A stretch of 64,000 bases of DNA from Candidatus Aminicenantes bacterium (GCA_011049545.1 DRHQ01000083.1:29766-93765), one strand, 5' to 3'. Counted from the stretch's first letter, positions 16,798 through 41,149 are shown. Program-made: numbers and translations. The notes: generated by a model not told the origin, from the letters alone.

Positions 16798-17307
16798 CTA
16801 ATACAGGTCTGGTATGCGAGTGTCTATTGCGATGAGCCATGAGCCATCCTCTTGTTTTCGCAATATCTGTAAGAACTTCCCAGTGACTTGCGTGGGCTCC
16901 ATGGGCTCGGGTAAGCCTTCCGCTGTCATTGTGAGATAAGCCGTTCCTAGGACAAAGGCAAGGTTATCTCGCCCATCAATTTTCACGATTGTTTGGTTGA
17001 ATGCCGTGACGGTCGCAGATGCTTTACTGAGAGCCTTTCTTTCCTCCTTAAGTGCTTCTCGCCCCTGAATCATTGGCCCCCCTGCAACCACCATGATTGT
17101 ATCCTCGGTATAGAACTCTGTGGTTGCCTCCATACCGCCTTCCAGCGCAGCTTGCACATAAGCATCATTTGCTGTTTTAATTGCCGCCACATCCTCATCT
17201 GATAAACCTGCAATCCCAGCCTCCTCAGCTATCTCTTCACCCTGTTGGCAGCCAAAAGCAAAACAAAGCAGAATGACTAAAGGAATGACCATAAGTAGTT
17301 TATTCAT
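16798..17307 (-). CDS. Lipoprotein with NTF2-like/SnoaL-like (DUF4440-type) domain
   Basis: 169-aa ORF with a signal peptide and lipobox (…CFAFGCQQ). Paralogous to the adjacent upstream ORF. Confidence 0.5.
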   Translation of the reverse strand: MNKLLMVIPLVILLCFAFGCQQGEEIAEEAGIAGLSDEDVAAIKTANDAYVQAALEGGMEATTEFYTEDTIMVVAGGPMIQGREALKEERKALSKASATVTAFNQTIVKIDGRDNLAFVLGTAYLTMTAEGLPEPMEPTQVTGKFLQILRKQEDGSWLIAIDTRIPDLY

Positions 17308-17818
17308 TGTTCCTCCTTTTGTTTAGTTTTGCAAAAAGAGCAGAAATATGGACATGTCTGATTTTCCATTCGTCCTCTTCATAATTAAAGACCCATGTCC
17401 AAGCGTCTTTTCCCTCGAATGTATTATCTGATTTATCTTTCATCATATAGCTGTAAAATCCATAAAGAACTGCCACATCAGCCGAGAGTACATCCACTTC
17501 AATCTCACCCATTGTATATTTAAGCTCTACCATATTAGCCATCATCTCATGTGCAATCTTTTTGTGTTCCTCCCAAGAATAATCTATCATGCCATGTTCG
17601 ATGGTTATTGTGTTATCACTGAAATAGCTGAACATTCTATCTAGTTCATTATTGCTTCCCGCCTCGAAGGCTTCTTTGGTGATTTGTTTGATAGTCTCCG
17701 TTATTTCAGCTTTCTGTGATTCATCGAGTGTTACTTTCCTTTGTTGACAGCTGATACTAAAACATAGCAAGAAACAAAGAGAAATTACTAAGGATAATGG
17801 AGTGAGTAGTTTTTTCAT
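17300..17818 (-). CDS. Lipoprotein with NTF2-like/SnoaL-like domain (paralogue of 16798..17307)
   Basis: Start placed at the ATG (MKKLLTPL…) preceded by AAGGAGGG. The ORF-track TTG start at 17863 lacks an RBS. Lipobox FSISCQQ. Confidence 0.5.
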   Translation of the reverse strand: MKKLLTPLSLVISLCFLLCFSISCQQRKVTLDESQKAEITETIKQITKEAFEAGSNNELDRMFSYFSDNTITIEHGMIDYSWEEHKKIAHEMMANMVELKYTMGEIEVDVLSADVAVLYGFYSYMMKDKSDNTFEGKDAWTWVFNYEEDEWKIRHVHISALFAKLNKRRNNE

Positions 17819-18035
17819 TTTCCCTCCTTTTTTCTTATGAGAATGCCTATTTGCTTGTAACAATTAAACCTAACTTTACAATCCGTGTCAACTTGATTGT
17901 TGGTCATTCCATCTTATCTTATAATTGCCATTACGAGGAGGGAAGCGACGCGGCAATCTCAACCTGATTTTTTGAATTGACATCGCAAAATTTTTATCTG
18001 GTTATCAAATTAAAATAAGGATAAAATAATATCAG

Positions 18036-19788: not shown

Positions 19789-19867
19789 TAACGGGGCCAA
19801 AAGCCAGGGCAAGAACGGGGACTGTTCCCTTTATCTCGCTTGGAATACACGCTCGTCTTACAAGTTT

Positions 19868-19942
19868 CGGGGAGTAGCGTAGCCTGGTTAGCGCGCCTGC
19901 TTTGGGAGCAGGAGGTCGTCGGTTCGAATCCGATCTCCCCGA
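19868..19942 (+). tRNA. tRNA-Pro (anticodon TGG)
   Basis: Manual fold: acceptor cggggag/ctccccg, D arm, anticodon stem cctgc/gcagg with loop ttTGGga, T arm gtcgg-ttcgaat-ccgat, discriminator A. No encoded CCA. Confidence 0.85.
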
Positions 19943-20011
19943 TTAAAACTTAAGACGGATAAAGGAACAATCGGATATAGAAGCCGATTGAGATAGAAAA
20001 ATATCAAGGAT

Positions 20012-20089
20012 GCGCCTGTAGCTCAGTCAGGATAGAGCAGCTGCCTTCTAAGCAGCGGGTCGGAGGTTCGAGTCCTTCCAGGCGTGCCA
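20012..20089 (+). tRNA. tRNA-Arg (anticodon TCT)
   Basis: Acceptor gcgcctg/caggcgt (G1·U72), anticodon stem gctgc/gcagc with loop ctTCTaa, T arm ggagg-ttcgagt-ccttc, encoded CCA. Confidence 0.8.
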
Positions 20090-20235
20090 CCCTTCCTCCT
20101 TATTTACCAATAGCTTTCCTTGGATTTTGATTTCATAGAGCCTATACTATTTTTAGTTTTTTTGACACAAAAATGTCAAAGGAGTGACAAATTCGACATC
20201 CCACTGTTACACGGGCTGATGTCTGGTTTTTTCTC

Positions 20236-20300
20236 ATTGACTTGAAACTTTTTCTTATGATATAAGTCAAAGAGTCACAGCTTAGGGACATCGTGAGCAA
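20236..20300 (+). promoter_or_regulatory. Repeated promoter + conserved leader module, copy 1 (TTGACt-N17-TGATATAAG-TCAAAGAGTCACAGCTTAGGGA)
   Basis: One of three near-identical modules (with 21192-21247 and 30104-30200), each ~120-150 bp after a tRNA or tRNA fragment and before an ORF. A possible 22-codon GTG-initiated leader ORF lies at 20293-20361. Confidence 0.45.
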
Positions 20301-20381
20301 CGCAAGAGGGAAGAACTTTTGCCTACATCATAAAGGCAGAATTCTATCTCCATATCTATAAACCAAAAAAGGAGGTATTTT

Positions 20382-20912
20382 ATGAAGAACAGAATTATCG
20401 TAGGAACAATTCTTTTTGCTTTTCTTCTTTCTGGAACTGTTTTTGCTCAAGAGAAAAAACAGAAAGTTGAAGCACCTCAATTAACAGTAGAGCAGAAATG
20501 GAAACGTGCTATGTCTAATCTGAATGCGATATTCATTGCAAGTATTGCCTATGCCAAATCTCAGGGAAAATCGCCATCACACTATGGTAAGTATATGGGA
20601 GAATTATTTGCGACAAGCTGGGAAGGAGTTAAAGGCGTAACAGATTTCATAGAGGCAATGCATTGGAATTGGCAAATGTGGGAAGATTTCCAGATTGAAG
20701 TCTTGGAAGAGTCTGAGAACTTTTATAAAGCGAAGATTAAAGGGATAGGCGAAAAATACATCACAGAAGGGTCGGAAGCAGGAGTCACATTAAACGAATA
20801 TTATGATTGCTGGGAACAACTTATGATGCCGATAACGAATTATTTAGGTCTGGAATACAAACAAAAAATAGAAGGAGATTGGATAGTATTTACAGTTAAA
20901 GAAAAGAAATAG
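20382..20912 (+). CDS. Hypothetical secreted protein (signal peptide)
   Basis: 176-aa ORF with a good RBS (AAAGGAGG). N-terminal signal MKNRIIVGTILFAFLLSGTVFAQ. No recognisable domain. Confidence 0.5.
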   Translation: MKNRIIVGTILFAFLLSGTVFAQEKKQKVEAPQLTVEQKWKRAMSNLNAIFIASIAYAKSQGKSPSHYGKYMGELFATSWEGVKGVTDFIEAMHWNWQMWEDFQIEVLEESENFYKAKIKGIGEKYITEGSEAGVTLNEYYDCWEQLMMPITNYLGLEYKQKIEGDWIVFTVKEKK

Positions 20913-21022
20913 ACACTCATAGCATACAAATCCAAGCCTTCCTGAGGTTGAGGATGCCAGGAAGAGGCTGGTTCCGTCCAGATCTTCTTATAAGCCCAAA
21001 GAAAAATAGGCTACGAAGGCCG

Positions 21023-21084
21023 AGCGGGTGGCTGTTAACCACTAGGTTGTAGGTTCGAGTCCTACCCGAGGAGCCATCTTTTTA
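21023..21084 (+). repeat. 3' fragment of a tRNA-Asn(GTT)-like gene (anticodon arm + T arm + acceptor 3' + CCA), direct repeat copy 1
   Basis: ggtgg-ctGTTaa-ccact…gtagg-ttcgagt-cctac-ccgagga-g-cca. No matching 5' acceptor or D arm upstream. ~95% identical to 29921-29982. Confidence 0.75.
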
Positions 21085-21191
21085 TGGGGTAAAAAGCTCT
21101 CGACTATTTAAGCAACCTTATCCGTAGTTAGGCAAGTTTAGGCATTTATTGACACACCACTGACACACAGGAATAGGTGTGTTTTTCTTGT

Positions 21192-21247
21192 TTGAATCTA
21201 ATTTTCCATTGTGAAATAAGTCAAAGAGTCACGGCTAGGGGAGCATA
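21192..21247 (+). promoter_or_regulatory. Repeated promoter + leader module, copy 2
   Basis: ttgaat-N16-gtgaaataag-tcaaagagtcacggctagggga, then the ATG of the 21248 ORF. Confidence 0.45.
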
Positions 21248-21691
21248 ATGAACCCAGCAAAGGAAGGAATCATGTTTGCCGCCCTTTACACTAAAAAGTG
21301 TATAAAGGAACAGGCACAAGATGAGCTTCAATATTTTCGTATGTATCCCACTGAAAGAGATGAAAGTGGGCGCACCATGTTGCTACCATTTGCATTCAAA
21401 GAGAGAGACTATTTCAATTGTCCAGAAAGAATGAAAGACGATGAGGTAAAAGTCGTAAAGGAGTATTCACCCCATCATGTATACACTTCTGACCCAAGAG
21501 AGTCATATCTAATTGACGAATGTAAATGGATTCCAACAGCAGACCAACTTAGGAAAGGTCTAGAAAGGATAGGTTATTCTATTGGAGATACTTCATATAT
21601 GAATGAAGAGCAAATACTTGATTTAATAATGAGAGAACGAAAAAAGATGAGGTGGAGTAGAGAAAAAGAAAACTGGGTAAAGGTTTTGTAG
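21248..21691 (+). CDS. Hypothetical protein
   Basis: 147-aa ORF with RBS AGGGGA. No recognisable domain. Confidence 0.5.
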   Translation: MNPAKEGIMFAALYTKKCIKEQAQDELQYFRMYPTERDESGRTMLLPFAFKERDYFNCPERMKDDEVKVVKEYSPHHVYTSDPRESYLIDECKWIPTADQLRKGLERIGYSIGDTSYMNEEQILDLIMRERKKMRWSREKENWVKVL

Positions 21692-21839
21692 AAGAGACTA
21701 TAATATACACCTACAATCGTAAACCCGTCGCTCCAGCGCACAATCTCACGACAAAACGACCTTCCTTGACTTCACGGATACCTGAGCATAAAATCATTTC
21801 GAGATTGTCAGTAATCAAAAGACTTAATGAGAAGGGGAG

Positions 21840-22280
21840 GTGAAAAAAATGGAACAACCCCTTTTAATATTACTTGGAGCATTATTAGCAATAGGAGGAG
21901 GTTTTATTAGCCAACACAACCAAAGCCGTCTTGATCAAAGGAGACAAGATAGAGAGTTTTTCCATCAGGCAGAAGAGATTTTAATTGAGATGCAGCCTTA
22001 TTTGGAAGAGGTCATGACTCCTCCTAGTAAAGAATTACATGAGTTAAGTAAAAAACTTCTTTATGCTGCTATGAGAATCAAAACAAAAGGCTATCTTGAC
22101 TTAGCATTAAAATTAGTTGAATTTGCTAGAATGGATGCCAAAAAGACTAAGGATGAAGCAATTAGTCTCATCCAGGAGGTTGCTGCGACAAGTAAAAGTG
22201 CGCTCGATATGCATCACAGAAAACGAAATGAAATTGTCAAAAAAGCCTGGGAAGAGCTAAAAAAGATTGGAAGGGGATAG
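21840..22280 (+). CDS. Hypothetical protein with N-terminal transmembrane helix
   Basis: 146-aa ORF with RBS GGGGAGG. TM segment LLILLGALLAIGGGFI, then a helical/charged region. Confidence 0.5.
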   Translation: MKKMEQPLLILLGALLAIGGGFISQHNQSRLDQRRQDREFFHQAEEILIEMQPYLEEVMTPPSKELHELSKKLLYAAMRIKTKGYLDLALKLVEFARMDAKKTKDEAISLIQEVAATSKSALDMHHRKRNEIVKKAWEELKKIGRG

Positions 22281-22474
22281 CGAAGAGAAGCATTGATTAA
22301 TACACTCCTAAAATTTAATAAATCTTTTGATCTCGATTTTTACTCCCTGCCTTTCAATACTCCCAATCTCGACTGGCGATCTGTGTCGCACGATGGGTAT
22401 TATGTAAACTTGCTACCTTGTAAAATGACCTTGAGAGCGGGAGAATAGATTATTGAGGGAAAAGGAGGGGGACA

Positions 22475-22620
22475 TGAAAAAACTTTGCATGATTATTCCT
22501 CTGATCCTGGTTCTATGTTTTATCGTCAGCTGTCAAAATCAGGAAGCAATGGCAGAGCTTGAAGAGATGAAGGCCCAGGCAGAGGTTGAGGAGCAGAATA
22601 AGGAAGTAATCGAAATTTAG
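22475..22620 (+). CDS. Possible small lipoprotein (48 aa), not in the ORF track
   Basis: ATG after AAGGAGGGGGA. MKKLCMIIPLILVLCFIVSCQNQ… has signal and lipobox features. Short and unverified. Confidence 0.3.
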
Positions 22621-22626
22621 TAAGAA

Positions 22627-24114
22627 ATGAGCGATATATATAGAAAGTTAGACAAAGTTTTCTTAGAACTAACTCAAGCCCTTTCTATCTATAGTAAATC
22701 AAAATTCTTGCAAGATTATTTTATAACTTCCTACATTTCATTTATATATGCAAATATTATTAAAAATTTTTTTATTAATTTGACAAGAGAGACTATAAAA
22801 AAATTAAATTTACCTAAAAGCCAAATAGGTGAAATCAAAAAAAAATATAAAGAAATACAGAAAGAAATAAATTTAGCAATATCTATTTCATTGAAGGGTA
22901 AAAAAATAGATGAAAAATATTACAGTAAATTTAAATCTAATATTAAAAAAGATTTCCCTGAATTTATAAAAATATTATCTACAGTTGAAAAAGAGATTAA
23001 AATTGCGAGGCTAAAGAAATTTATTAACAAAAAGAAAATAGAGATAAAAAGGGTAGGTCAAGATGAAGCAGATCTTCATAAAGATTTATTAACAAAAGCA
23101 TTAGAAGCGTATATTCAGGAAAAAAAAGAAATTCCGAGTATGATAAAAGTAAAAAACCTTATTAATACTATTGGAAGAGAAATCTTACCAAAATTTTCAG
23201 AAGCTTTAACGGCAGATCTTATTAAGGATAGACACGCGTTTTTATCAGATCAAAGAAAACTCCAAAAGGGATTTGAGACTCGATTATATGAAAGGTGGAA
23301 GGATCCTTTAGACCTCTTTGAATGCTTAATTCAAATTTCTTTAGAATCTGGAGAAAAACGTAAAAAAAAGTTAAATAATAAGAAAAATAATAAAAATAAT
23401 TCTAAATATGACGCGCTAATTAAACTTCATGCCAGAGCCTTACATATTTCTAACGAAATAGCTATTTTGCTGAAATCGGGTTATGCAGATGGTGCAAACG
23501 CCAGATGGAGGAGCCTCCATGAATTAGCTGTTATTTCTTTTTTCCTATGTGAAAATAATAATGATGCTTCAAAAAGATATTTAGAGCATAGCGTTATAAG
23601 AGCACTAAAAGAGGCAAAGGATTATAGAACCTATTATAAAAAATTGGGATATCCTCCTATAAAAAGAAAAGAGCTTCTGATGTTAGAAAAGGAAGCAGAG
23701 AGGCTATGCAAAAAGTATAGTGATAGATTTCAAGATGATTATGGTTGGATTCCCAGCTCCATATTAAAAGAAAGAAATTTTAAAGCTCTAGCACAATCTG
23801 TTAAGCTTGATAAATTACGTCCATACTATAACCTTGCTTGCGATTCTTCCCATGGAGGTTCAAAGGGGTTTTATAGACTTGGTTTAATGGATGATTCTCA
23901 AGACAAAATATTTCTTGTTGGTTCAAGTAATTATGGACTTGCTAGTCCTCTCCAAAATTCTGCTATTTCTTTATTACACGTTTCCTCTTGCTTATTAACT
24001 TTGGAGCCTGACTTTGAAAGCATTATACAAATATATGTGATGGGTAATTTTATGAACGAAATTTGTGATAAAGCAGTTGAAGTTCAAAGTAAGATTGAAA
24101 AGGAAACAGATTAA
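22627..24114 (+). CDS. Large Lys/Ile-rich hypothetical protein with a C-terminal HEPN-like R-x4-H motif (Abi-like candidate)
   Basis: 495-aa ORF in very AT-rich DNA. The C-terminal region has …GANARWRSLHELAV… (R-x4-H) inside a predicted helical domain. No other recognisable motif. Confidence 0.55.
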   Translation: MSDIYRKLDKVFLELTQALSIYSKSKFLQDYFITSYISFIYANIIKNFFINLTRETIKKLNLPKSQIGEIKKKYKEIQKEINLAISISLKGKKIDEKYYSKFKSNIKKDFPEFIKILSTVEKEIKIARLKKFINKKKIEIKRVGQDEADLHKDLLTKALEAYIQEKKEIPSMIKVKNLINTIGREILPKFSEALTADLIKDRHAFLSDQRKLQKGFETRLYERWKDPLDLFECLIQISLESGEKRKKKLNNKKNNKNNSKYDALIKLHARALHISNEIAILLKSGYADGANARWRSLHELAVISFFLCENNNDASKRYLEHSVIRALKEAKDYRTYYKKLGYPPIKRKELLMLEKEAERLCKKYSDRFQDDYGWIPSSILKERNFKALAQSVKLDKLRPYYNLACDSSHGGSKGFYRLGLMDDSQDKIFLVGSSNYGLASPLQNSAISLLHVSSCLLTLEPDFESIIQIYVMGNFMNEICDKAVEVQSKIEKETD

Positions 24115-24192
24115 TAGTAATTCTGCTTCTTTAATAATCATTATGTTAACTCGCTCCGTATGAAATGACCTTTATATATTTTAGGAGTAGAC

Positions 24193-24645
24193 ATGAGCAC
24201 AACTCAATTAATATTTCCTTGGTACCATAGGATAAGACATGTAGATTTAAAGAAAATAAAACACCCTACATCTTTGTTGGATTTTCAAGAATTATCATAT
24301 ACAGAAAGATATGATTCTCGATATTTTAAATATCTTAACTTGTCAAATAAGAAATTGTCTACAAACTGGCTAGACTCGTGGGAATCAATATTTGTAGTCG
24401 GTCCATTTATAGAAAGAAAACAGAAATATAATAAAATTCCGTTCATTGTCTTTATAACAGAGGGAAGCATTTATAGCCAATTGGTGGTTTTAAGCAGAAG
24501 ACTTGAGCTGCCTTATTATGAGTTCGGGATAATGCCAGATTTATATATATATCCTTCTAAGCTTCACAAATATTTCACTATGAAAAAGGATAAGCTTTGG
24601 CTTAGAACTGAAGCCGTTTCTATTAGACTTAAGAAAGGAGGATGA
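24193..24645 (+). CDS. Hypothetical protein, translationally coupled upstream partner of the HEPN-like ORF
   Basis: 150-aa ORF whose stop is 1 nt before the next ATG. No canonical nucleotidyltransferase G[SG]…D.D motif found. Confidence 0.5.
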   Translation: MSTTQLIFPWYHRIRHVDLKKIKHPTSLLDFQELSYTERYDSRYFKYLNLSNKKLSTNWLDSWESIFVVGPFIERKQKYNKIPFIVFITEGSIYSQLVVLSRRLELPYYEFGIMPDLYIYPSKLHKYFTMKKDKLWLRTEAVSIRLKKGG

Positions 24646-24646
24646 A

Positions 24647-25042
24647 ATGCCCAATCCAAACCAGTACAAAAAAATATCAGATAGATATCTAAATGCTTCG
24701 GATTTATTGGTTGATGATGTTCATGAGGCAGCAGGATTTTCTTTATATCATGCCTTTGAATCCATGGGAGCTGCATGGATAAGAACGAATGCTAGAGTTG
24801 TGCCTCATAGACATGAAAGCAAAATTAATATGTTCGTATCTTTAACGAGAGAAACTGGGCACAGAACTGGTATTGGGCTGGTAGGTATTTTATTAAACTC
24901 ATTGAGAAATAAGATGCTTTATCCAATTCCTGAAATTCCGTCAGGTTTTTCGATACCTCACATTAAATTCTCAGTCTCAGAAATAAAAAATTTGAGCCGA
25001 AGGGTAAAAGGTATTTTAAATATAATAAGACCTCTAATCTAA
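24647..25042 (+). CDS. HEPN-domain-like small protein
   Basis: 131-aa ORF. ASDLLVDDVHEAAGFSLYHAFESMGAAWIRTNARVVPHRHESKINMF follows the helical HEPN pattern (…A.DL…A..y.a.E…KA…p..H…L.). Confidence 0.45.
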   Translation: MPNPNQYKKISDRYLNASDLLVDDVHEAAGFSLYHAFESMGAAWIRTNARVVPHRHESKINMFVSLTRETGHRTGIGLVGILLNSLRNKMLYPIPEIPSGFSIPHIKFSVSEIKNLSRRVKGILNIIRPLI

Positions 25043-25059
25043 TTACTCAAGAATATTGT

Positions 25060-25560
25060 ATGGATAAAGATAGATTTCTTCGTGTTTTCAAGGAATCATT
25101 GGAAGTAATAACAGAAAAACGCTTCTTCTCATCTGAGCTAGGTTATCAAGGACAACTTGTATCTGAGCTAAATAAAAGATTAATAATGGAGTTGGTTTTT
25201 TCAAACAGGGCAGTCGTTGAGCAAGAATACCAAAAAAGATTGAAGGACCATGGTATCAGAATAAGGCCGGACATAATTATTCATGTCCCATACTCAGAAG
25301 GAATTCATTCCTCAAGGAAAGAAGATAATTACGTGGTTATCCAGCTAAAAAAGAACTCATCAAAAAAAGATGCTTTAGATGATTTAAAAAAAATTGACTT
25401 ATTATTTCAGAATTTAGATTATCCACTTGGTGTTTTTCTGAATATAGGTTCTGAGAAAAATTTTTATAGTTATTATTTAGGAGAATATAGAGATCGAATT
25501 CATTGTTTTGCAGTTCTATTGTCAGCAGAAGACAAGGTAATCATACACAAATCACCATAA
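25060..25560 (+). CDS. Hypothetical protein, possible PD-(D/E)xK nuclease-like fold
   Basis: 166-aa ORF 17 bp after the HEPN-like gene. Contains …E…RPDIIIH…VVIQLKK…, a weak E/PD/QxK arrangement. Confidence 0.45.
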   Translation: MDKDRFLRVFKESLEVITEKRFFSSELGYQGQLVSELNKRLIMELVFSNRAVVEQEYQKRLKDHGIRIRPDIIIHVPYSEGIHSSRKEDNYVVIQLKKNSSKKDALDDLKKIDLLFQNLDYPLGVFLNIGSEKNFYSYYLGEYRDRIHCFAVLLSAEDKVIIHKSP

Positions 25561-25647
25561 AACTTATTTGTCTAAGAGCTAATACCTCTAATGCTTTGCT
25601 ACCTTCTAAGATAAAGAGCCTAAAATAAAGATGGAAGTTTAGACAAG

Positions 25648-25700
25648 TGGAAGTCAAAAACCCTAAAGCCCTAGCTTCCCCGATTTCTGAAAAAGACAGT
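25648..25700 (+). repeat. Island hairpin motif family P5, copy A (GGAAG[CT]CAAA-N-CCTAAAGCC-YTRGCTTCCC-N-GAT[TT]GAAAAAG)
   Basis: Imperfect inverted repeat GGAAGCCAA/TTGGCTTCC followed by GATTGAAAAAG. Four copies, each 60-130 bp upstream of an ORF (25780, 28174, 31890, 32334). Confidence 0.7.
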
Positions 25701-25779
25701 AGAGCGAATTTAAAGCTAATTTCTCTTTCCCGGGAAGATTGTGCCGCACAATCGATATTATGTAAACTTATAAAAACCT

Positions 25780-26688
25780 ATGTCGAATCATAAAAAACAA
25801 CATTCTGTTCCCAAATGTTATCTCAGGGAATTTATTGACCCAGAAACTCCAGGTGGATATGAGCCTTTTATTTGGATTTTTGATAAAAACGGCAAGAACA
25901 AAAGAAAGAAGGCACCTAAAAATGTATTAACAAGTAACAATCTATACACTATTGAAGTCGAAGGGAAGGCTAGGGATTATTCTATTGAAAAAAGCCTCTC
26001 TTCTATTGAGAACGATTTTGCAATTTTGTTCAGACAGAAAATCAAAAATCTATTGCCATTATCAGAGGAGGAGCACATATCTTTGTGCATTTTTATAGCC
26101 ACTATGCTCCAGAGAACTGTTAGCCAGAAAGCTAATCTAGAACATTTCCTTGATGAGCTAATTTCACATGGCGAAAAATTAGCAGCACATCATGGAATTA
26201 AGTCGAGGACTGTTGAGAGCCTAAAAAACTACAAAAGAGATGCTCATAAACTCAATATTTTGAAGATGTTTCCAGAAGTGACTCAAATTTTATTAAATAT
26301 GAGCTTGGCATTCGTAATAGTGGGGAGAAGCAAATCTCGGTTTATTACCTCCGATGACCCATGCACCCTTTTTAATCCAAAATTAAGAGAGCAACGCCTT
26401 ATGGGTCCAGGATTGGGTCAGAAGGAAGTTGAATTGACTATTCCATTATCTCCTGAGATTGCACTCTGTTTGAGCTGGAGTAATTTTCGGGGATTTATTG
26501 AAATTGGAAAACGACAGATTGAAGAATTAAATAGAACAACGCGAGCCCATTGCTATGAACTCTTTATTTCCTCTAGTTCCCATAAAAAATTTAGATGGTT
26601 TTTAAAATACCCTTTGAGCCTAATTTTTGTCATGAAAGTTATCAGACAGAAGTTTAATTATAGAATTCATAGAAATTTTCACTCATGA
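25780..26688 (+). CDS. DUF4238-like protein
   Basis: 302-aa ORF whose N-terminus (HSVPKCYLREF) fits, to my recollection, the family signature H-x-V/I-P-x-x-YL-R/K-x-F. Preceded by a repeated tattatgtaaactt -10-like element. Confidence 0.55.
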   Translation: MSNHKKQHSVPKCYLREFIDPETPGGYEPFIWIFDKNGKNKRKKAPKNVLTSNNLYTIEVEGKARDYSIEKSLSSIENDFAILFRQKIKNLLPLSEEEHISLCIFIATMLQRTVSQKANLEHFLDELISHGEKLAAHHGIKSRTVESLKNYKRDAHKLNILKMFPEVTQILLNMSLAFVIVGRSKSRFITSDDPCTLFNPKLREQRLMGPGLGQKEVELTIPLSPEIALCLSWSNFRGFIEIGKRQIEELNRTTRAHCYELFISSSSHKKFRWFLKYPLSLIFVMKVIRQKFNYRIHRNFHS

Positions 26689-26697
26689 ATTCAAGTT

Positions 26698-27564
26698 ATG
26701 GCAAAAGAAGATAGATATTCACTCGCGTTATATTTAGCCTCTAAAGGCCAACTGGACAAAGCCTCATTCCTTCTGTGGAAGATAGTTGAGAAAACAAATA
26801 GTGCAGAGTTAATGCTGAACTCCATATTGGCTTTGGTTACTATGTTGGGGCGAAAAGAAAACAACGAAAAAATTATAAATCTATGTGATAAGGGAATTGA
26901 ACTCTCTTATAGACTCAATAATGAGAATGCCAAAGCATTTCTAATGGCGACTAAAGCTCTAAGCATAATAATTGAAGTCGAATTCAATCTACACAAGAAG
27001 AAGAATCTTGTTTTAGCACCGGGGTGGAAGGAATTTGCCTTGGAATCCATAAAGGAGGAGTTCACAGTCCTTACAAGAAAGATTGAGCAAAACCGGAGTG
27101 AATCACAACAATTGATAACTGAATCCTTCAAAGGAATCAGTTCAAGTCAAATTAGTGAAACACTAGCAGACGTTTTAATGATAAAAGGTGAATATCATTT
27201 TGATGAATACCTGAATTACAAAATAGAAAATATCAAAACTACAAAATTTAGACTGTTTCTAAAGAACGTCAGTAACATTGACTCTTTTCTTTATAATCAG
27301 AGTAGCCAAAAAACTACAAAAAGAATTTTAAAGGACTCAAAGAAGTGCATCATTGATGCAGCACAGATTTATAAGAATCTAGGAGATGAAATAAATCAAG
27401 CAAATGCTTATTTAAACTTAGCAAATCAAGCGATTTCGATAAATCGTAAAAAGGAAGCGAGGAAATATCTAAAAAAAGCAATTACTGAAGTTCAAAACAA
27501 TAAAAATTTGGAAATATTGAACAGAATTAGAAATTTGGAAGAACGATTAATGAAACATGATTAG
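26698..27564 (+). CDS. Hypothetical alpha-helical (TPR-like) protein, probably co-transcribed with the DUF4238-like gene
   Basis: 288-aa ORF 9 bp downstream of the previous stop. Repetitive helical hairpin pattern (…AYLNLANQAISINRKKEARKYLKKA…). Confidence 0.5.
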   Translation: MAKEDRYSLALYLASKGQLDKASFLLWKIVEKTNSAELMLNSILALVTMLGRKENNEKIINLCDKGIELSYRLNNENAKAFLMATKALSIIIEVEFNLHKKKNLVLAPGWKEFALESIKEEFTVLTRKIEQNRSESQQLITESFKGISSSQISETLADVLMIKGEYHFDEYLNYKIENIKTTKFRLFLKNVSNIDSFLYNQSSQKTTKRILKDSKKCIIDAAQIYKNLGDEINQANAYLNLANQAISINRKKEARKYLKKAITEVQNNKNLEILNRIRNLEERLMKHD

Positions 27565-28065
27565 TAGTATTGGAAATAGCACTTAGGAATATAACTCCCC
27601 GTTGGGGAATGTCATTTACAATGATTTAAGCGAAATGGAGACTCAACCATTTTGAAGTAGGTCCCCAATAAAGAAGCTTCAGTCCTTCGGTGTTTGGATG
27701 TTCAGATTGAGCTAAACATAGTAAAGAACACAAACTACTATACAAAGGTCACATATTAAAAGAAAAGCAATACTTCAGTTAGATCCATGCCCCATAATCA
27801 TATTCATCCCTGGATACTCCATTCTAATCTTCAGTTCTGAATATCCCTTCAACTTGTGATATAATATCCTCAAAAGTCCTTCATTCGGTTTGAAGGCGGC
27901 CTGAATAAGGCTCACTTCCGGTGAAGCCTTGGTGGCACATTTAAATAGCTGGTCCATTGTCCTCCAGGAACTTCTTACTTAATTCGTTTTTTTTGTACTA
28001 CAATTATGGCATTTTTTCAACATGGGGGATTTCCAAATTCTATACTAAAAAAATTTTAGGTAGAG

Positions 28066-28115
28066 CTTAAGCCAAATACCCTAAAGCCCTGGCTTCCCTA
28101 GATTGAAAAAGATAT
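28066..28115 (+). repeat. Island hairpin motif family P5, copy B
   Basis: aagccaaataccctaaagccctggcttccctagattgaaaaag. Confidence 0.7.
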
Positions 28116-28173
28116 CATTAAGGGTGGAAATTACCCTCAAGAACATAGACTGATTTTATAGGGGGACATTCTC

Positions 28174-29187
28174 GTGTTACTTTTTGATGACGGTTTATTT
28201 TCTCTTGATAGTCCGAAAGAGAGTTTTGCGGATGAAAGCTGGTCTGGAAATCTTTGGTATCGGACTAATGTAATTGCTCCTATAGAATCCCCTAAGGATT
28301 TAAGCTGGCTTTTTGAAATTGAACAAGAAGCAAGAAAGCTAGGTTATCTTGGAGAAGTAAAATCATATTTTGCTTATCAAATTATTATCCATTTAGATGT
28401 CAAAAGAAGAAATAGAATTTGGAGATTAATTCAAGATGTTCCTATTCTTATAATTGACCCAAAATATTATTTAAGAGAATTCGGAATAAAAATTATAAAT
28501 CAATACAGTTATTCATTTGAAATATATGGAGTAAAATTCCAAATAAATCGGTCAGACCAGATGTTTAAAAAATATGAAGAACTTCTTCAAGAATTATTAT
28601 CCCAGAGAGTACTCATTGATTCTCTTTTACCTGATTTAGAAAATGCCATAAGAAATATTTCAGCTCGCTATGATGTGTTTCCAGGCATATATGACTTCGA
28701 ACCGAAAAGAATATTGAAACAATTAAATTTCAAGAAACCAAAAAAGCAAATAATAAATGTTGTCAAACTCTCATCAAGGCTTCATAGCGCTTTTATTGAA
28801 CTGGGTGATAGAGATTCAATAAATTCTGCAATGGACGGATTATCATATTTTAAAATGGATTTACTGTTCCCATTATCTCACTTTTATAGGGATTTATTGA
28901 TTAAATCTATATCAAGAAACTGCTATTTTGATGAAGGTGACACGAAGTCCATTGAATTTATTAGAGGATTAATCAATAAAGTTAAGACTGGTTTAACTCA
29001 TGATATTTTTGGAAAATATTCGGCCATTCCAGAAGCAAAAATTGAAGAAATCAAATCTGAAGAAGATATAAGAATGCGCGCTTCAGATGTAATATCTGGG
29101 ATTGCCAGAATGATTTATGATTCTGAGGGGATAAGAGGTTTAAAGAACAAATTTTCTTATATATTTTTTAATGGTCGCAGAATATAG
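28174..29187 (+). CDS. Hypothetical protein
   Basis: 337-aa ORF with GTG start after AGGGGGAC. AT-rich, no recognisable domain. Confidence 0.5.
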   Translation: MLLFDDGLFSLDSPKESFADESWSGNLWYRTNVIAPIESPKDLSWLFEIEQEARKLGYLGEVKSYFAYQIIIHLDVKRRNRIWRLIQDVPILIIDPKYYLREFGIKIINQYSYSFEIYGVKFQINRSDQMFKKYEELLQELLSQRVLIDSLLPDLENAIRNISARYDVFPGIYDFEPKRILKQLNFKKPKKQIINVVKLSSRLHSAFIELGDRDSINSAMDGLSYFKMDLLFPLSHFYRDLLIKSISRNCYFDEGDTKSIEFIRGLINKVKTGLTHDIFGKYSAIPEAKIEEIKSEEDIRMRASDVISGIARMIYDSEGIRGLKNKFSYIFFNGRRI

Positions 29188-29484
29188 AATAAAGAAAATA
29201 TTTGGAAGGTATACACTTTACCCCAAGTATTTTGTTTGCCTTCTTTCCAGTTAATTGCACTCGTTCACTTTCTCATTCTATGTTTCTCGTTTGGGCAATA
29301 AAGCCAATCCTCAAGCCTTGAACATCAATCCACCCTGTCCCCAGGCGAAGGATTGCGTCGCATATCTATTATTATGTATACTACTATAACTCACATAATA
29401 TCAGTAAGTTGCGATGATTTAGATTTGAAATATTATCCCATTTTGGGCCAAAAAAAGGGGGTAAATTCCCGTTTTTCAAATAGG

Positions 29485-29575
29485 GGTGGCGTCTGACTGC
29501 GAATCAGAAGGTCGTCGGTTCGAATTCGATCTCCCCGATTAAAGCTTAAGACGGATAAAGGAACAATCGGATATA
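29485..29575 (+). repeat. tRNA 3'-fragment direct repeat (copy of tRNA-Pro T arm, acceptor 3' end and 37 bp of downstream flank)
   Basis: 29510-29575 matches 19914-19979 at 64/66 positions (…ggtcgtcggttcgaat[ct]cgatctccccgattaaa[ag]cttaagacggataaaggaacaatcggatata). It is preceded by an unrelated anticodon-arm-like hairpin and has no 5' tRNA half. Confidence 0.8.
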
Positions 29576-29659
29576 AAAATAAGTTCTTCCTGTCTTCTCA
29601 CCTTCAGCCAGATTTAGAGGGGTCTAAATGAATCTGATATTACCAAGCTCTGTAAGCCA

Positions 29660-29860
29660 TTACGGAATTACATCTTTAAACTTCTCTGAAGCAGGTTCTC
29701 CACCAATTCCCCAGTGTGATTTTTGGATTTCATGAATAATCACTTCTACAGCCTGAGTGGGAATCCCTAAATCTACAAAGACCTTAGTTATATTTTGGAT
29801 TGTGATTTTTGCTTTTTCCTGTCCGAAACCTTCCCAGACATTTACATGGATAACGGGCAT
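29660..29860 (-). CDS. Tautomerase family protein (4-oxalocrotonate tautomerase-like)
   Basis: 66-aa ORF starting MPVIHVNVWEG… with catalytic Pro1 after Met, at the typical tautomerase-family length. Confidence 0.6.
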   Translation of the reverse strand: MPVIHVNVWEGFGQEKAKITIQNITKVFVDLGIPTQAVEVIIHEIQKSHWGIGGEPASEKFKDVIP

Positions 29861-29920
29861 TTATTACCTCCAAAGTTTTGTTGATAATAATACTCTACTA
29901 TCTGGATTCTGAAAAATCAA

Positions 29921-29982
29921 AGCGGGTGGCTGTTAACCACTAGGTTGTAGGTTCGAGTCCTGCCCGAGGAGCCATCTTTTTA
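29921..29982 (+). repeat. 3' fragment of a tRNA-Asn(GTT)-like gene, direct repeat copy 2
   Basis: Same as 21023-21084 with one T-stem substitution (cctgc vs cctac). No 5' half present. Confidence 0.75.
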
Positions 29983-30103
29983 GGGGCCAGAGACAACCTC
30001 TCATTTACTCACCATTAGGCAATAGCGAGCAATTGTAGTCATTTTGTGTCATGCGGACGTCACCGGTCTATCACATGGCAGAAAACAGGTCATTATTACG
30101 TGG

Positions 30104-30275: not shown

Positions 30276-31760
30276 ATGAAGAAAAACTGGATGGCAGAAC
30301 TCACCTATCATTATGAAAAAACTCGGCGCCGATATCCTCAAGATCGGCTGATGATTCTTTTTGATATCGACGGTACAATTCTAGATATGCGCTATATGGT
30401 ATTTCATGTCCTGAAAGCCTTTGATAAAAAGCATGACACCCATTTTTTTCGAAAGCTTAATGTCTCTGATATTACTGTACACGAGAATCAAGTGGATAGT
30501 TTTTTAGCAGAGTTACGAATTCCATCAGAGGAACAGAGAGAGATCATAAAGTGGTATAATCAGCATCGCTGGTCTTCGGAGTATATCCTTCAGTCCCACC
30601 ATCCATTTTCTGGAGTGCTTGAGGTTATTCGATGGTTCCAACTCCAGCCAAATACCTTTGTTGGCTTGAATACTGGCCGGCCTGAATCAATTCTAAGCGA
30701 CACCTTGAGATCCCTGAATAAATTAGGTAAAGAGTATAAAGTTCAATTTAGTGATGAACTGTTGCGTATGAATCCTGGGGGCTGGGAACAAGAAGTAGAA
30801 AATTCGAAGGTTGCTGGAGTGCGCTATTTTCAAAAAAAAGGGTATCACATCTTCGCCTTTGTAGACAACGAGCCCAATAATTTGAAGGTGGTTTCCAATA
30901 TTGATCCAGATCAAGAAATTCTCCTACTTCATGCGAATACTATCTTCGAATCTAAAAGGACCAGATTACCTTCCCGTACGGTCAAAGGTAAAGCATACGA
31001 CATAACTGAACTAATTCCCGAGAAAGAACTGCCCCAGCATATTCAATTTGTTTGGCATGGTATAAACGACGAAGTGAACTTACGTCAATTTCTAGCTTCT
31101 GAGATTACTTGGGGGGAATGTGATGTTCGTATGGATCCCATAGCCAATGAGTTGATTCTTCGTCACGATTCCTTTGTAGAACTCCCTCTGGATGTAGACG
31201 AAGATTGGTTTAGTTTGGATCGTCTGCTCCATCGCTTGTTAAAAACAGGCAAGTCAATTAAGCTCGATTTAAAGTCAGGCGGTATTTTGGTAGATAAGGC
31301 TTTGAAATTCATTGAATCTTCCAGCTTTGATGAATCTCGCCTGTGGTTTAACGGCAATGTGGAAAGACTGCAAGAGCAAGGGTTCAGAAAATTAGCCAGT
31401 GCCCACCCCGATGCTATTTTGCAATGCCCTGTTGATTTTTTAGCTCCTCTGATTAGCAGTGCCCCAGAAAAAGCTCAGGAAATACTCGATATGTTTATAA
31501 AATGGGGTATCAACCGCTTTTCCATTAATTGGAAAACTCAGAACATGCGCAATTTCTTTGATCAGATGGATAAATGGGGATTTGAAGTCAATATTTACAA
31601 CGTTCCTGATTTAGAGTCATTCCTGGAGATGGTGCTTCTCATGCCGCGATCTATCACGTCCGATTTCAATTTTCCTAAATGGCATTATTATGGCAGAGGC
31701 TCAGGAGAAGATGGTAGCCATTATGAATATTCTATACGAAAGACGAAAGGAAGAAAGTAG
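30276..31760 (+). CDS. Fusion protein: N-terminal HAD-superfamily phosphatase domain + C-terminal GDPD/PLC-like phosphodiesterase (TIM-barrel) domain
   Basis: 494-aa ORF. Carries HAD motif I ILFDIDGTILD. The C-terminal half (FVWHGINDEVN…ECDVRMDPIANELILRHDSF) parallels the GDPD pattern H-R-G…E-N…E-x-D-V…H-D. Confidence 0.55.
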   Translation: MKKNWMAELTYHYEKTRRRYPQDRLMILFDIDGTILDMRYMVFHVLKAFDKKHDTHFFRKLNVSDITVHENQVDSFLAELRIPSEEQREIIKWYNQHRWSSEYILQSHHPFSGVLEVIRWFQLQPNTFVGLNTGRPESILSDTLRSLNKLGKEYKVQFSDELLRMNPGGWEQEVENSKVAGVRYFQKKGYHIFAFVDNEPNNLKVVSNIDPDQEILLLHANTIFESKRTRLPSRTVKGKAYDITELIPEKELPQHIQFVWHGINDEVNLRQFLASEITWGECDVRMDPIANELILRHDSFVELPLDVDEDWFSLDRLLHRLLKTGKSIKLDLKSGGILVDKALKFIESSSFDESRLWFNGNVERLQEQGFRKLASAHPDAILQCPVDFLAPLISSAPEKAQEILDMFIKWGINRFSINWKTQNMRNFFDQMDKWGFEVNIYNVPDLESFLEMVLLMPRSITSDFNFPKWHYYGRGSGEDGSHYEYSIRKTKGRK

Positions 31761-31802: not shown

Positions 31803-31850
31803 AGGAAGCCAAAGACATTAAAGCCTTGGCTTCCCTGGATTGAAAAAGGA
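31803..31850 (+). repeat. Island hairpin motif family P5, copy C
   Basis: ggaagccaaagacattaaagccttggcttccctggattgaaaaag (best palindrome of the family). Confidence 0.7.
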
Positions 31851-39746: not shown

Positions 39747-39820
39747 GGAGTAGATAGACAGAAGACAAAGATAATTTTCGCAAGACAGGGGGTCGAAAAG
39801 AATCAAGAAGAACATCCAAA

Positions 39821-41149
39821 ATGCAAAAAAGACGGGAAACTGAGGAGATAGATACAAAAAAAAAAGATATCTTATGGCTAATTCTCCTTCGTTTAATCAT
39901 AGTAACGTCTCTTGTAGTTTCAGCCGTTATAATTCAATACAGCACATCAGTTTTTCTCCCGCTTAATTCCTTTTACTACTTAATCCTCTTATTCTACGTT
40001 CTCTCAGTCATCTATTTTATTTTTTATATCTGGGGAAAATATCTTATCCCTCAGGCTTACTTACAAATATTCTTCGACCTCCTTTTGATTACAGCCCTTG
40101 TCTATATTTCTGGAGGATTACAAGGGTCTTTTTACTTCCTTTATATTTTAGGAATAATTGCAGCAAGCATCGTTCTCTCCAAGCGGGCTGCCTATCTGAC
40201 TGCGGCCCTCTCTGCCATCTTTTTTGGTTATCTTGTGGTTTTGATGTATCGGAGAATCATTCCTTCTTTTGCTCCCGAGGAAATTCCGGAAATTTCTCTG
40301 GGTCTTGTTATAAACAATATTTTTATTGCCTGGAGTGCCTTTTTCCTCGTGGCCTTTTTAATGAATTACCTGACCGGGAGTTTACAGAAAACGAGGGACG
40401 AGCTTCGCCTGATTCAAAAAGAGCTTGAAATAAAAAATCGGCTGGCAGTGGCTGGAGAGGTCTCAGCCCAACTGGCTCATGAAATCCGGAATCCCCTGGC
40501 AGCAATCTCAGGCTCTGTTCAGGTTCTGAAAGACGAATTAAACCTGCACGAAGAGCAAAAAGATCTGATGAATATCATTGTTAAAGAATCAGGGAGAGTT
40601 TCTCGATCCATTGAGCAATTCCTGAATTTAGCTTCCCCGGTCAAGCAAGCCTTTTCCTCTATCGACCTCTCAGCTATTTTAGAAGAAACCGTGGTCTTGC
40701 TTCAAAGCGGCGGCGAGCTAAACGGGAACTTTCGGGTTGAGGGGAATTTCAAATCAGTCCATGTTCGATATTTTGGAAGCGGCAGCCAGTTCAAGCAGTT
40801 GTTCTGGAATATCATTAAGAATTCGCTCAGAGCAATGCCCGATGGCGGGACGTTGACTGTTGATTTCAACCAGGAGAAAAAGGATGAAATCCAATTAAGG
40901 ATGGCCGATACCGGAAAGGGCATGACCGAAGAAGAAAAAGAAAGGATTTTTGAACCTTTCTATTCTGGTTTTGAGGGTGGGCAGGGAATTGGGATGGCTG
41001 TTGTTCACCGGATTGTGGGCGACTATAAAGGGGAAATCAAGATTGACTCTGAGCTTGATAAAGGAACAGAGATCGTCATAACTCTTCCCCTGAGGGGACC
41101 TGGAAATCCAAGAATACTGAAAAGTGTAAAGAAAAAGAAAGATGGATAA
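39821..41149 (+). CDS. Membrane sensor histidine kinase (PilS-like)
   Basis: 442-aa ORF with a multi-TM N-terminus, HisKA H-box (LAHEIRNPLAAISGS) and HATPase_c G-boxes. Confidence 0.85.
   Translation: MQKRRETEEIDTKKKDILWLILLRLIIVTSLVVSAVIIQYSTSVFLPLNSFYYLILLFYVLSVIYFIFYIWGKYLIPQAYLQIFFDLLLITALVYISGGLQGSFYFLYILGIIAASIVLSKRAAYLTAALSAIFFGYLVVLMYRRIIPSFAPEEIPEISLGLVINNIFIAWSAFFLVAFLMNYLTGSLQKTRDELRLIQKELEIKNRLAVAGEVSAQLAHEIRNPLAAISGSVQVLKDELNLHEEQKDLMNIIVKESGRVSRSIEQFLNLASPVKQAFSSIDLSAILEETVVLLQSGGELNGNFRVEGNFKSVHVRYFGSGSQFKQLFWNIIKNSLRAMPDGGTLTVDFNQEKKDEIQLRMADTGKGMTEEEKERIFEPFYSGFEGGQGIGMAVVHRIVGDYKGEIKIDSELDKGTEIVITLPLRGPGNPRILKSVKKKKDG

Follow-up and report, generated by a model that had tools for sequence, protein, structure and literature searches.

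Two orphan tRNA-Asn 3' fragments as probable attachment-site cores of small tRNA-targeting elements in Candidatus Aminicenantes

The window analysed in this study is a stretch of 64,000 nucleotides (nt) from Candidatus Aminicenantes bacterium (GCA_011049545.1 DRHQ01000083.1:29766-93765), which carries two 3' fragments of tRNA-Asn(GTT). With a probability of about three in four, these fragments are the attachment (att) cores of a family of small integrative elements that target tRNA genes and whose hosts are probably sediment bacteria of the Aminicenantes. At the right end of an autonomous member would be the gene of a tyrosine integrase, in most cases with HTH_17 at its N-terminus; the member's own attachment site (attP) would be a tRNA segment, from about position 22 to the CCA plus about 12 nt, between conserved arms; and integration into a tRNA would restore the gene and displace a 3' fragment to a place beyond the integrase, on its downstream side. 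In the window the integrases would have been lost, leaving a tandem array of integrase-less cassettes similar to a cis-mobilizable element (CIME). Fragment 1 would be the junction of cassettes E0 and E1, with arms on both sides, while fragment 2 would be an old attR-type scar, fixed in the population and still receiving cassettes in other strains. Recombination would be catalysed in trans by a family integrase, and the intact tRNA-Asn would lie elsewhere in the host genome.

Identity of the tRNA-Asn fragments

The two fragments are as follows.

21022..21092, + strand: Asn(GTT) fragment 1; 21022-21076 equals tRNA positions 22-76 including CCA, followed by TCTTTTTATGGGG
29921..29986, + strand: Asn(GTT) fragment 2; 29921-29974 equals tRNA positions 23-76, followed by TCTTTTTAGGGG

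They form a direct repeat of 66 nt on the + strand (21023-21088 and 29921-29986), and a preliminary description of this DNA, which gave their identity as about 95%, was right as to near-identity; the actual value is 97% (64/66). A core of 34 nt is shared letter for letter (21030-21063 and 29928-29961) and occurs twice in the window, compared to 0 copies expected from 100 shuffles, in agreement with the earlier view that the fragments are not random matches. The existence of other short repeats in the region, and nothing more, speaks for chance or for a segmental duplication unrelated to mobile DNA; this explanation is hardly credible, since no chance matches are expected and the identity ends near the tRNA segment (about 12 nt past it on the right, exactly at tRNA position 22/23 on the left), with no larger duplicated block.

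Positions 22-76 of a canonical 76-nt tRNA-Asn(GTT) reference seen in seven genomes (TCCTCGGTAGCTCAATCGGCAGAGCGGG…GAGGAGCCA) match fragment 1 without a mismatch: the D-stem 3' strand GAGC, the anticodon arm (loop CTGTTAA), the variable loop, the T arm, the acceptor 3' strand, the discriminator G, and CCA are all present. Fragment 2 has a single change from the canonical sequence, A to G at 29962 in the 3' strand of the T stem; the commonest full tRNA-Asn genes comprise two variants that are one T-stem pair apart. Both copies are followed by TCTTTTTA(T)GGGG.

The preliminary description held that both fragments are orphans and that the window has no intact tRNA-Asn, and both statements stand. 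Over the whole window ARAGORN reports only tRNA-Pro(TGG) at 19867-19943 and tRNA-Arg(TCT) at 20012-20089, with no tRNA-Asn, and Rfam gives partial tRNA matches at fragment 1 (21009-21065, 29.5 bits, model positions 9-63) and fragment 2 (29908-29963, 27.2 bits). ARAGORN together with Rfam in gathering and E-value modes rules out a hidden intact tRNA-Asn in the window. A search that allowed up to 3 mismatches did not find the 22-nt 5' part of tRNA-Asn (TCCTCGGTAGCTCAATCGGCAG) anywhere in the window, and a split or permuted tRNA gene is ruled out because this half is missing.

The 34-nt core was found at no fewer than 119 loci (at least 119) from many phyla among species-representative genomes. 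Among the matches listed, 112/119 cores are inside an intact tRNA-Asn(GTT) and the other seven are at contig ends or contain N; orphan copies are therefore not a general genome feature. A tblastn comparison of all window open reading frames (ORFs) with the 119 listed tRNA-Asn loci found no common neighbourhood, and the candidate integrases near tRNA-Asn (window 39758-42506) proved to be PilS/PilR two-component genes. The pilin proteins of the window have matches of 45-52% to an Aminicenantes contig; these matches, the organism names on integrase homologues, and the likeness to the genome L193 (below) are the grounds for the probable placement in the Aminicenantes.

Conserved arms and the element family

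Fragment 1 is flanked by two arms.

20939..21021, + strand: left (P-type) arm of fragment 1; hairpin 20939-20971, tail ggctggttccgtccagatcttcttataagcccaaagaaaaatag (…SSYKPKEK*), then 11 nt
21093..21247, + strand: right (P'-type) arm of fragment 1; nhmmer arm profile E = 1e-19, the sole match in the window

The right arm consists of a spacer, the 20-nt motif TAGTTAGGCAAGTTTAGGCA (21125-21144), TGACACA-N4-TGACACA (21150-21167), a terminator-like hairpin (21162-21183) formed by the region of the TGACACA repeats, the promoter-like TTGAAT (21192-21197) … TGTGAAATAAG, and the leader ATAAGTCAAAGAGTCAC. A consensus promoter scan made no call at the promoter-like elements, which were found by eye.

Related loci carry L numbers here. 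Exact-protein look-ups led to marine and estuarine sediment metagenome contigs and to the metagenome-assembled genome (MAG) GCA_011050515.1. The hairpin of the left arm has 91-97% identity to sequences in four of the related loci (L139, L179, L186, L146), and a tail ending …LSYIPKEK* directly precedes Asn fragments in L154, L170, and L158 and arm motifs in L163 and L171. On the right, the segment 21086-21260 (spacer, motif, TGACACA-N4-TGACACA, hairpin, promoter-like elements, and leader to ATG AAC CCA) aligns at 80-89% identity, for up to 175 nt, with more than 20 metagenome loci whose neighbouring genes are unrelated.

A motif scan located TAGTTAGGCAAGTTTAGGCA in 50 metagenome contigs and had no match in viral contigs; a phage origin was rejected, as viral contigs have no arm motif and integrase P0004 has no close relatives there. 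In L155, L161, and L167 the motif is 47-48 nt 3' of an intact tRNA-Lys(CTT) or tRNA-Arg(CCT), and in most other contigs a tRNA 3' fragment, as a rule with (A)GAGC at its start, precedes the motif with corresponding spacing. The distance from T loop to motif is 63-66 nt in 28/52 occurrences and 30 nt in five, a shorter type. At least eight tRNA identities were read: Asn, Arg(ACG), Arg(CCT), Arg(TCG), Arg(CCG), Thr(CGT), Lys(CTT), and a possible Ser(GCT). With conserved arms on both sides, fragment 1 resembles an attP or the junction of two tandem elements. The 5' ends of the fragments are likewise attP-type boundaries rather than deletion scars, since their start is typical of family cores and they have flanking arms.

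Such a tandem array is present in L158, where a tautomerase gene, fragment, arm, promoter, upstream ORF (uORF), SnoaL gene, tail, fragment, arm, and next gene follow one another; the units are about 0.9 kb, hold a single gene, are parted by tail, Asn fragment, and arm, and have no integrase.

Two variations on this anatomy were seen in the family. In one sub-type (L165, L013 3876-3911, L153, L160, L171, L178) the core stops after the T arm and is followed by CTCACTCAG…GTATCCA and the motif; in L165, about 30 nt before the motif, a tRNA-Arg(TCG) is complete except that such sequence stands in for the acceptor strand at its 3' end, and an insertion of this type would leave the tRNA copy inactive. 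Whole tRNAs or parts of tRNAs also occur in reverse orientation just upstream of arm motifs, at loci that include L193 11470-11540; the 5' part of a tRNA-Met is reversed in L011 (7085-7130), and an intact tRNA-Arg(CCT) is on the opposite strand upstream of the arm motif in L141, L149, and L170. This suggests inversions or insertions in two orientations within arrays.

Integrases in related elements

Clustering of the ORFs from motif contigs identified a recurrent 406-amino-acid (aa) protein with Phage_integrase and N-terminal integrase domains. In L175 a 3.7-kb element begins with an Asn copy at the contig start and continues with the arm, a promoter and leader as in window 21216-21260, three small genes, and the 406-aa tyrosine integrase (Pfam 1.7e-23); an Asn fragment follows the stop codon of the integrase at a distance of 17 nt. 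A linear ARAGORN run on L175 found no intact tRNA-Asn. A database search gave 79 homologues of the integrase, most of 470-490 aa with an added HTH_17 domain, and the few that bear an organism name come chiefly from MAGs of Aminicenantes or Acidobacteriota. The integrase stop codon is 8-25 nt before an Asn fragment, with ordinary host genes thereafter, in L187/188, L189-191, and L192; L189-191 are from the same estuary as some window-type contigs, and their integrase is truncated beside an rve transposase gene. The closed Aminicenantes genome CP070825.1 (L193) combines an integrase with an Asn-like fragment, a variant of the arm, an ORF of 192 aa, and a leader with 78% identity to window 20255-20375.

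Two suggestions of the preliminary description are borne out by these loci. Copies of the fragment do occur elsewhere at element ends, as identical Asn fragments adjoin tyrosine integrase ends in L175 and L187-L192; and a mobile element family with a tRNA-Asn-derived attP, one of the origins it had proposed, gains support from the arm in 50 contigs, the pairing of integrase and fragment, and the use of fragment 2 as an insertion point.

No integrase was found in the cargos of the window type or of the strains compared at this locus. A tblastn search of the window with four family integrases returned nothing below E = 1, Pfam found no integrase among the window cargo and flanking ORFs, and Pfam on the cargo ORFs gave no match of relaxase or conjugation type. 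An integrase pseudogene to the left of fragment 1 was rejected: the tail …KPKEK* is unlike integrase C-termini (…FSVN*), and tblastn was negative.

Fragment 2 as an insertion point

Fragment 2 lies between the following features.

29660..29860, - strand: 4-oxalocrotonate tautomerase-family gene, 66 aa; Pfam Tautomerase; on 22 contigs
29903..29920, + strand: sequence just left of fragment 2, ctggattctgaaaaatca; the same or almost the same in every strain
30276..31760, + strand: flanking HAD-like gene, 494 aa; it marks where the flank begins that is kept in strains without an insertion at fragment 2

The left side of fragment 2 is alike in all strains, and the tautomerase gene and fragment 2 are fixed together in all related strains; with the same left junction in every strain, this junction is therefore old. 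The right side has two states. It is host flank (GGGGCCAGAGAC…) in the window, L009-L012, L015, and L016, and arm plus cassettes in L017, L158, L013, and L014, where the sequence after fragment 2 is of the type that follows fragment 1 in the window. These alternative right sides make fragment 2 an insertion point that is occupied in some strains.

Variation within fragment 2 is clustered in patches, and L009 has 90% identity in the fragment compared to 96% in the flanks. The two strands of the T stem are mismatched: GTAGG/CCTGC in the window, GCAGG/CCTAC in L009, and CCAGG/CCTTC in L014. Such patchiness is the pattern that would be expected from exchange between different Asn-like cores.

Local decay is an improbable explanation of these data. 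It supposes that a tRNA-Asn once stood here, was hit by islands, and lost its 5' part by deletion, so that the fragments are passive pseudogene remnants, and it agrees with the lack of both an intact tRNA-Asn and an integrase in the window, with a rearranged locus of hybrid fragment and nested repeats, and with a left junction of fragment 2 that is identical across strains and hence old. However, both fragments start at about position 22/23, like most family fragments of several tRNA identities; a conserved element arm rather than random sequence precedes each of them; fragment 1 is exactly the canonical tRNA, undecayed; and the clustered patches of fragment 2, with different cassettes in four strains, point to continued exchange. 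The serial integration envisaged in the preliminary description is supported by the tandem cassettes here and in L158, but not its proposal that the original tRNA-Asn was deleted here, as nothing shows that one existed.

The mismatched T stems also bear on whether the fragments function as RNA, namely as transcribed tRNA-like signals for 3' processing or stabilisation, or as terminators, of cassette mRNAs. Fragment 1 is 110 nt 3' of a 176-aa ORF on the same strand, a T-run follows both fragments, and the sequence is perfectly tRNA-like. A role of this kind is nevertheless very unlikely: without the acceptor 5' strand and D arm there is no tRNA fold and ARAGORN reports nothing, the Rfam matches are partial and at or below threshold, fragment 2 is upstream of a divergently transcribed gene and not at the 3' end of an mRNA, the T-stem pairing is broken in other strains (GCAGG/CCTAC in L009, CCAGG/CCTTC in L014), and the conservation is explained by the link to integrase genes.

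Layout and cargo of the locus

The remaining features of the locus are listed in order.

19867..19943, + strand: intact tRNA-Pro(TGG); ARAGORN, Rfam 66.8 bits; left copy of the 'Pro' repeat
20012..20089, + strand: intact tRNA-Arg(TCT); ARAGORN, Rfam; kept in all related strains
20150..20381, + strand: degenerate element arm and expression unit; repeat 72% with 21182-21242
20382..20912, + strand: cassette E0, a single 176-aa ORF; signal peptide, no Pfam family
21248..29332, + strand: cargo E1; two small ORFs at host-like GC content, then about 7 kb at 31-35% GC
29333..29482, + strand: arm at the right end of the variable region; the alignment with L011, whose cargo differs, starts at 29333 (99%)
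29483..29578, + strand: hybrid tRNA-like fragment; Rfam 26.3 bits, strain comparison

The order is thus tRNA-Pro, tRNA-Arg(TCT), E0, Asn fragment 1, E1, Arg(ACG)/Pro hybrid, tautomerase, Asn fragment 2, and host flank. The preliminary description had Pro, Asn fragment, cargo, Pro fragment, and Asn fragment in the right order, but omitted the tRNA-Arg(TCT) and the 176-aa ORF before fragment 1. In all related strains that extend far enough, the left border is mutL, tRNA-Pro, and tRNA-Arg(TCT), and the right border is the tautomerase gene (- strand), the Asn fragment, and the 494-aa gene.

The degenerate arm at 20150-20381 has TGACAC-type repeats, a terminator-like hairpin (20212-20225), a promoter-like TTGACT (20237-20242) with TG-ATATAA (20258-20265) after 17 nt as read by eye, and a conserved leader with a uORF of 22 codons (20293-20361). 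It has 77-82% identity to the arm and leader regions of L163, L175, L147, and L158, and 78% to that of L193. By protein look-up, the E0 ORF is confined to the window haplotype.

The low-GC cargo block (31-35%) spans window 22000-29300. The following ORFs of E1 were characterised.

22627-24114: DUF5677
25060-25560: PD-Lambda-3_A-like protein
25780-26688: DUF4238; matches PADLOC DUF4238-Pers
26698-27564: TPR protein
28174-29187: 337-aa protein; a 30% identical homologue is beside the arm motif in L144

At the same place L009 has two AbiE pairs, an NYN-domain gene, and SnoaL genes, and L011 has an AIPR abortive-infection gene; the strain-variable cargo between tRNA-Arg(TCT) and the right-hand fragments looks defence-related. 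The variable region starts 100-300 nt 3' of tRNA-Arg(TCT), with left breakpoints between strains, from BLAST, at 20193 (L011) or 20387 (L009). On the right the breakpoints are at 29333, at 29489 (the exact start of the hybrid fragment, L014/L016), and at 29579-29583 (its exact end).

SnoaL/DUF4440-type lipoprotein genes recur as cassette cargo in L009, L013, L158, L163, and L147/L175; genes of this type are also at window 16798-17863 (- strand), just upstream of mutL, with 27-30% identity to the cassette copies.

The Arg(ACG)/Pro hybrid and exchange between tRNA-like sites

The left member of the Pro repeat is a block at 19893-19982 that extends 40 nt beyond the 3' end of tRNA-Pro. The second member (29483-29578) has 88% identity to it, with a different anticodon arm and compensated stem changes. 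What the preliminary description called a tRNA-Pro fragment is in fact an Arg(ACG)-type anticodon arm joined to the T arm and acceptor 3' strand of tRNA-Pro, together with 40 nt of the flank that follows tRNA-Pro. The loop is CTACGAA in other strains, whereas the window has a mutated anticodon, GCG in place of ACG. In other strains the 5' part is GAGCGTCTGACTACGAATCAGAAGGTCG…, which was read as tRNA-Arg(ACG) because the same segment has the matching acceptor strand and CCA in L145, L146, and L150. The window type turns from Arg to Pro sequence ahead of the T stem, and L014/L016 do so within the T loop; with two switch positions, heterologous tRNA-like sites have been exchanged more than once. 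The T-stem chimeras of fragment 2 and the Arg/Pro hybrid point to further exchange around the T loop.

The mixture of Asn, Arg, and Pro sites would have arisen by exchange between tRNA-like cores or by homologous recombination of arms that are 80-89% identical. Asn cores could thus have reached a Pro/Arg locus by two routes: a trans-acting integrase may have inserted cassettes into leftover fragments, as at fragment 2, or homologous recombination may have joined the long, similar arms present at different tRNA loci.

If the second route were the only process, RecA-dependent exchange between arms would have moved fragment, arm, and cargo from a true tRNA-Asn island, and the cores would no longer be used by an integrase. 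The arms, at 150-300 nt and 80-89% identity, are long and similar enough; arrays have mixed tRNA identities; an Arg/Pro junction at two positions suits homology-driven exchange better than a fixed crossover; and the window and L011 have swapped cargo within common arms at 20193 and 29333. As the sole explanation this is nonetheless improbable, because the cargo boundary between L014/L016 and the window is exactly at the core start (29489), L017, L158, L013, and L014 diverge right after the core of fragment 2, and intact family integrases are directly against such cores. Shuffling by arm homology is compatible with att-site cores and may act alongside integrase-mediated exchange.

Evidence weighing against att-site cores

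Several observations weigh against the interpretation of the fragments as att cores. The window lacks the cognate intact tRNA-Asn, leaving the classical signature of tRNA, island, integrase, and fragment incomplete; the intact tRNA-Asn of the host organism is not among the 119 or more core matches listed from species-representative genomes. No case of intact tRNA-Asn, element, and fragment together was seen among relatives either, the left Asn copy of L175 being cut by the contig end, and L180 has a degenerate full-length tRNA-Asn copy with two acceptor-stem mismatches. The array is at tRNA-Pro/tRNA-Arg and not at tRNA-Asn, and its mixture of Asn, Arg(ACG), and Pro cores is not what a simple series of integrations into a single tRNA produces. 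To the left of E1 is an Asn site; to its right the Arg/Pro hybrid comes first and an Asn site only afterwards. The arm, which has a terminator-like hairpin inside it, could have repeats that are promoter, operator, or terminator elements and not integrase-binding sites. The case for att cores is made from anatomy and from alternative occupants across strains, through which recombination itself is inferred.

A more far-reaching idea is possible but tentative: the unit of tail, tRNA fragment, arm, promoter, and leader (about 330 nt) may serve as the module for recombination and expression in a cassette platform that parallels integrons but uses tRNA-derived sites. HTH-fused tyrosine integrases acting in trans would insert, excise, and shuffle integrase-less cassettes of one or more genes; tRNA-like cores, of which the same arms carry at least eight identities, would be interchangeable; and in Aminicenantes-like sediment bacteria arrays could expand wherever there is a tRNA gene or a leftover fragment. 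If so, the platform would supply much of the strain-level variation in defence genes and would represent a second, tRNA-based way to build gene-cassette arrays.

Comparison with known systems

Islands identified by Islander have a tRNA gene (tDNA), an island with a tyrosine integrase, and a displaced tDNA fragment, and the catalogue of their attP sites includes an anticodon-centred class (PMC4383910). The window fragments are similar in being tRNA 3' ends with CCA on the same strand as the tRNAs, an attP-type copy would restore the gene, the tyrosine integrase of relatives adjoins the fragment, and the window cores start just 5' of the anticodon stem, as fits the anticodon-centred class (PMC4383910). 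The window differs in having neither an integrase nor the cognate intact tRNA-Asn, the intact tRNAs on its left being Pro and Arg(TCT), and in an array that mixes cores of three tRNA identities; Islander filters would reject the locus. Islander features are present in relatives, with the integrase in L175 and L187-L193 and an intact tRNA-Lys or tRNA-Arg(CCT) followed by the arm in L155, L161, and L167.

CIMEs have lost their integration genes while keeping the flanking att sites (Pavlovic 2004, Bellanger 2011, reviewed in PMC5704250), and are defined relative to integrative and conjugative elements or integrative and mobilizable elements of Firmicutes, which are moved by conjugation (PMC5704250). 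The window cassettes are similar in having no integrase, with no conjugation or mobilisation genes seen in the cargo. As for pairs of att sites, Asn cores flank 21077-29920, a span that includes the hybrid core and the tautomerase gene, and E0 is bounded by tRNA-Arg(TCT) to the left and by an Asn core to the right. Autonomous relatives that carry an integrase are present in metagenomes (L175, L187). The family cassettes differ from CIMEs in being much smaller (down to about 0.9 kb, one gene) and in having a conserved promoter and leader.

The tycheposons of Prochlorococcus are moved by a tyrosine-recombinase family with many tRNA targets; stacked integrations are parted by partial tRNAs, and the islands have degenerate remnants, scattered extra partial tRNAs, and adaptive or defensive cargo (10.1101/2020.12.28.424599). 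Island anatomy is similar here, with integration at tRNA genes, partial-tRNA flanks, tandem arrays, and remnants. The phylum and habitat are different, however, the family integrase is an HTH_17 fusion, no replication module (primase/helicase) is present in the window cargo or L175, and the conserved arm motif, promoter, and leader unit of the family are not described for tycheposons.

Integron arrays are similar in their small, often single-gene units, a conserved recombination site, and a tyrosine recombinase encoded elsewhere. The window array is not an integron: the family sites are tRNA-derived and not attC, promoter-like elements come with the cassettes themselves, an IntI/attI/Pc platform is lacking, and the integrase of autonomous relatives is at the distal end, next to attR. 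The ssrA islands of Dehalococcoides reportedly arose by repeated insertion at one small RNA gene, giving arrays bounded by direct repeats of its 3' end, and each island is said to keep its own integrase and the single target ssrA; in the window, by contrast, the integrases are missing and cores of several tRNA types are mixed.

This kind of biology is therefore known, but a narrow, targeted literature search did not find descriptions of the lineage, the arms with promoter and leader, the one-gene cassettes, or the mixing of tRNA identities. The finding accounts for a strain-variable hotspot, rich in defence genes, in an uncultured sediment lineage. It also indicates that insertion points are marked by leftover tRNA fragments and not by intact tRNA genes alone; island finders that demand a cognate tRNA and an integrase would overlook such loci, while tRNA 3' fragments and the 20-nt arm motif provide handles for finding islands in fragmented metagenome assemblies.

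Other repeated elements

The left context of fragment 2, ctggattctgaaaaatca, resembles a CCTGGATTGAAAAAGAC motif that precedes fragments elsewhere (e.g., L152). It also resembles the 3' part of a repeated, hairpin-containing element (AAGCC…GGCTTCCCTGGATTGAAAAAG) that is present in the window at 25651-25693, 28069-28111, and 31806-31848 and is directly before tRNA fragments or arm spacers in L152, L159, L160, L168, and L177.

A motif of about 30 nt (TGTGYCGCAC…TATTATGTAAACT) has three copies, at 22382-22411, 25740-25769, and 29354-29383. The first two are upstream of gene starts and the third is about 130 nt upstream of the hybrid tRNA-like fragment; these copies may be promoters internal to the cargo.

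Two types of conserved short ORF occupy the leader that separates a cassette promoter from its cargo gene. Type 1, VSNARGKNFCLHHKGRILSPYL* (window 20293-20361), is similar to MCNARGKNLCFYRKGIVLSPYL… in the closed Aminicenantes genome (L193 11751-11843). Type 2 is MNPARREEFMLKS… / MNSVRREDFLLKSKEQASISMSIN*, and the E1 gene of the window (21248 onward) starts MNPAKEG. Short leader ORFs are also present in L158 (reverse-complemented, 553-627) and L175 (reverse-complemented, 232 onward), and may represent a regulatory leader peptide or an element of the 5' untranslated region common to the cassettes.

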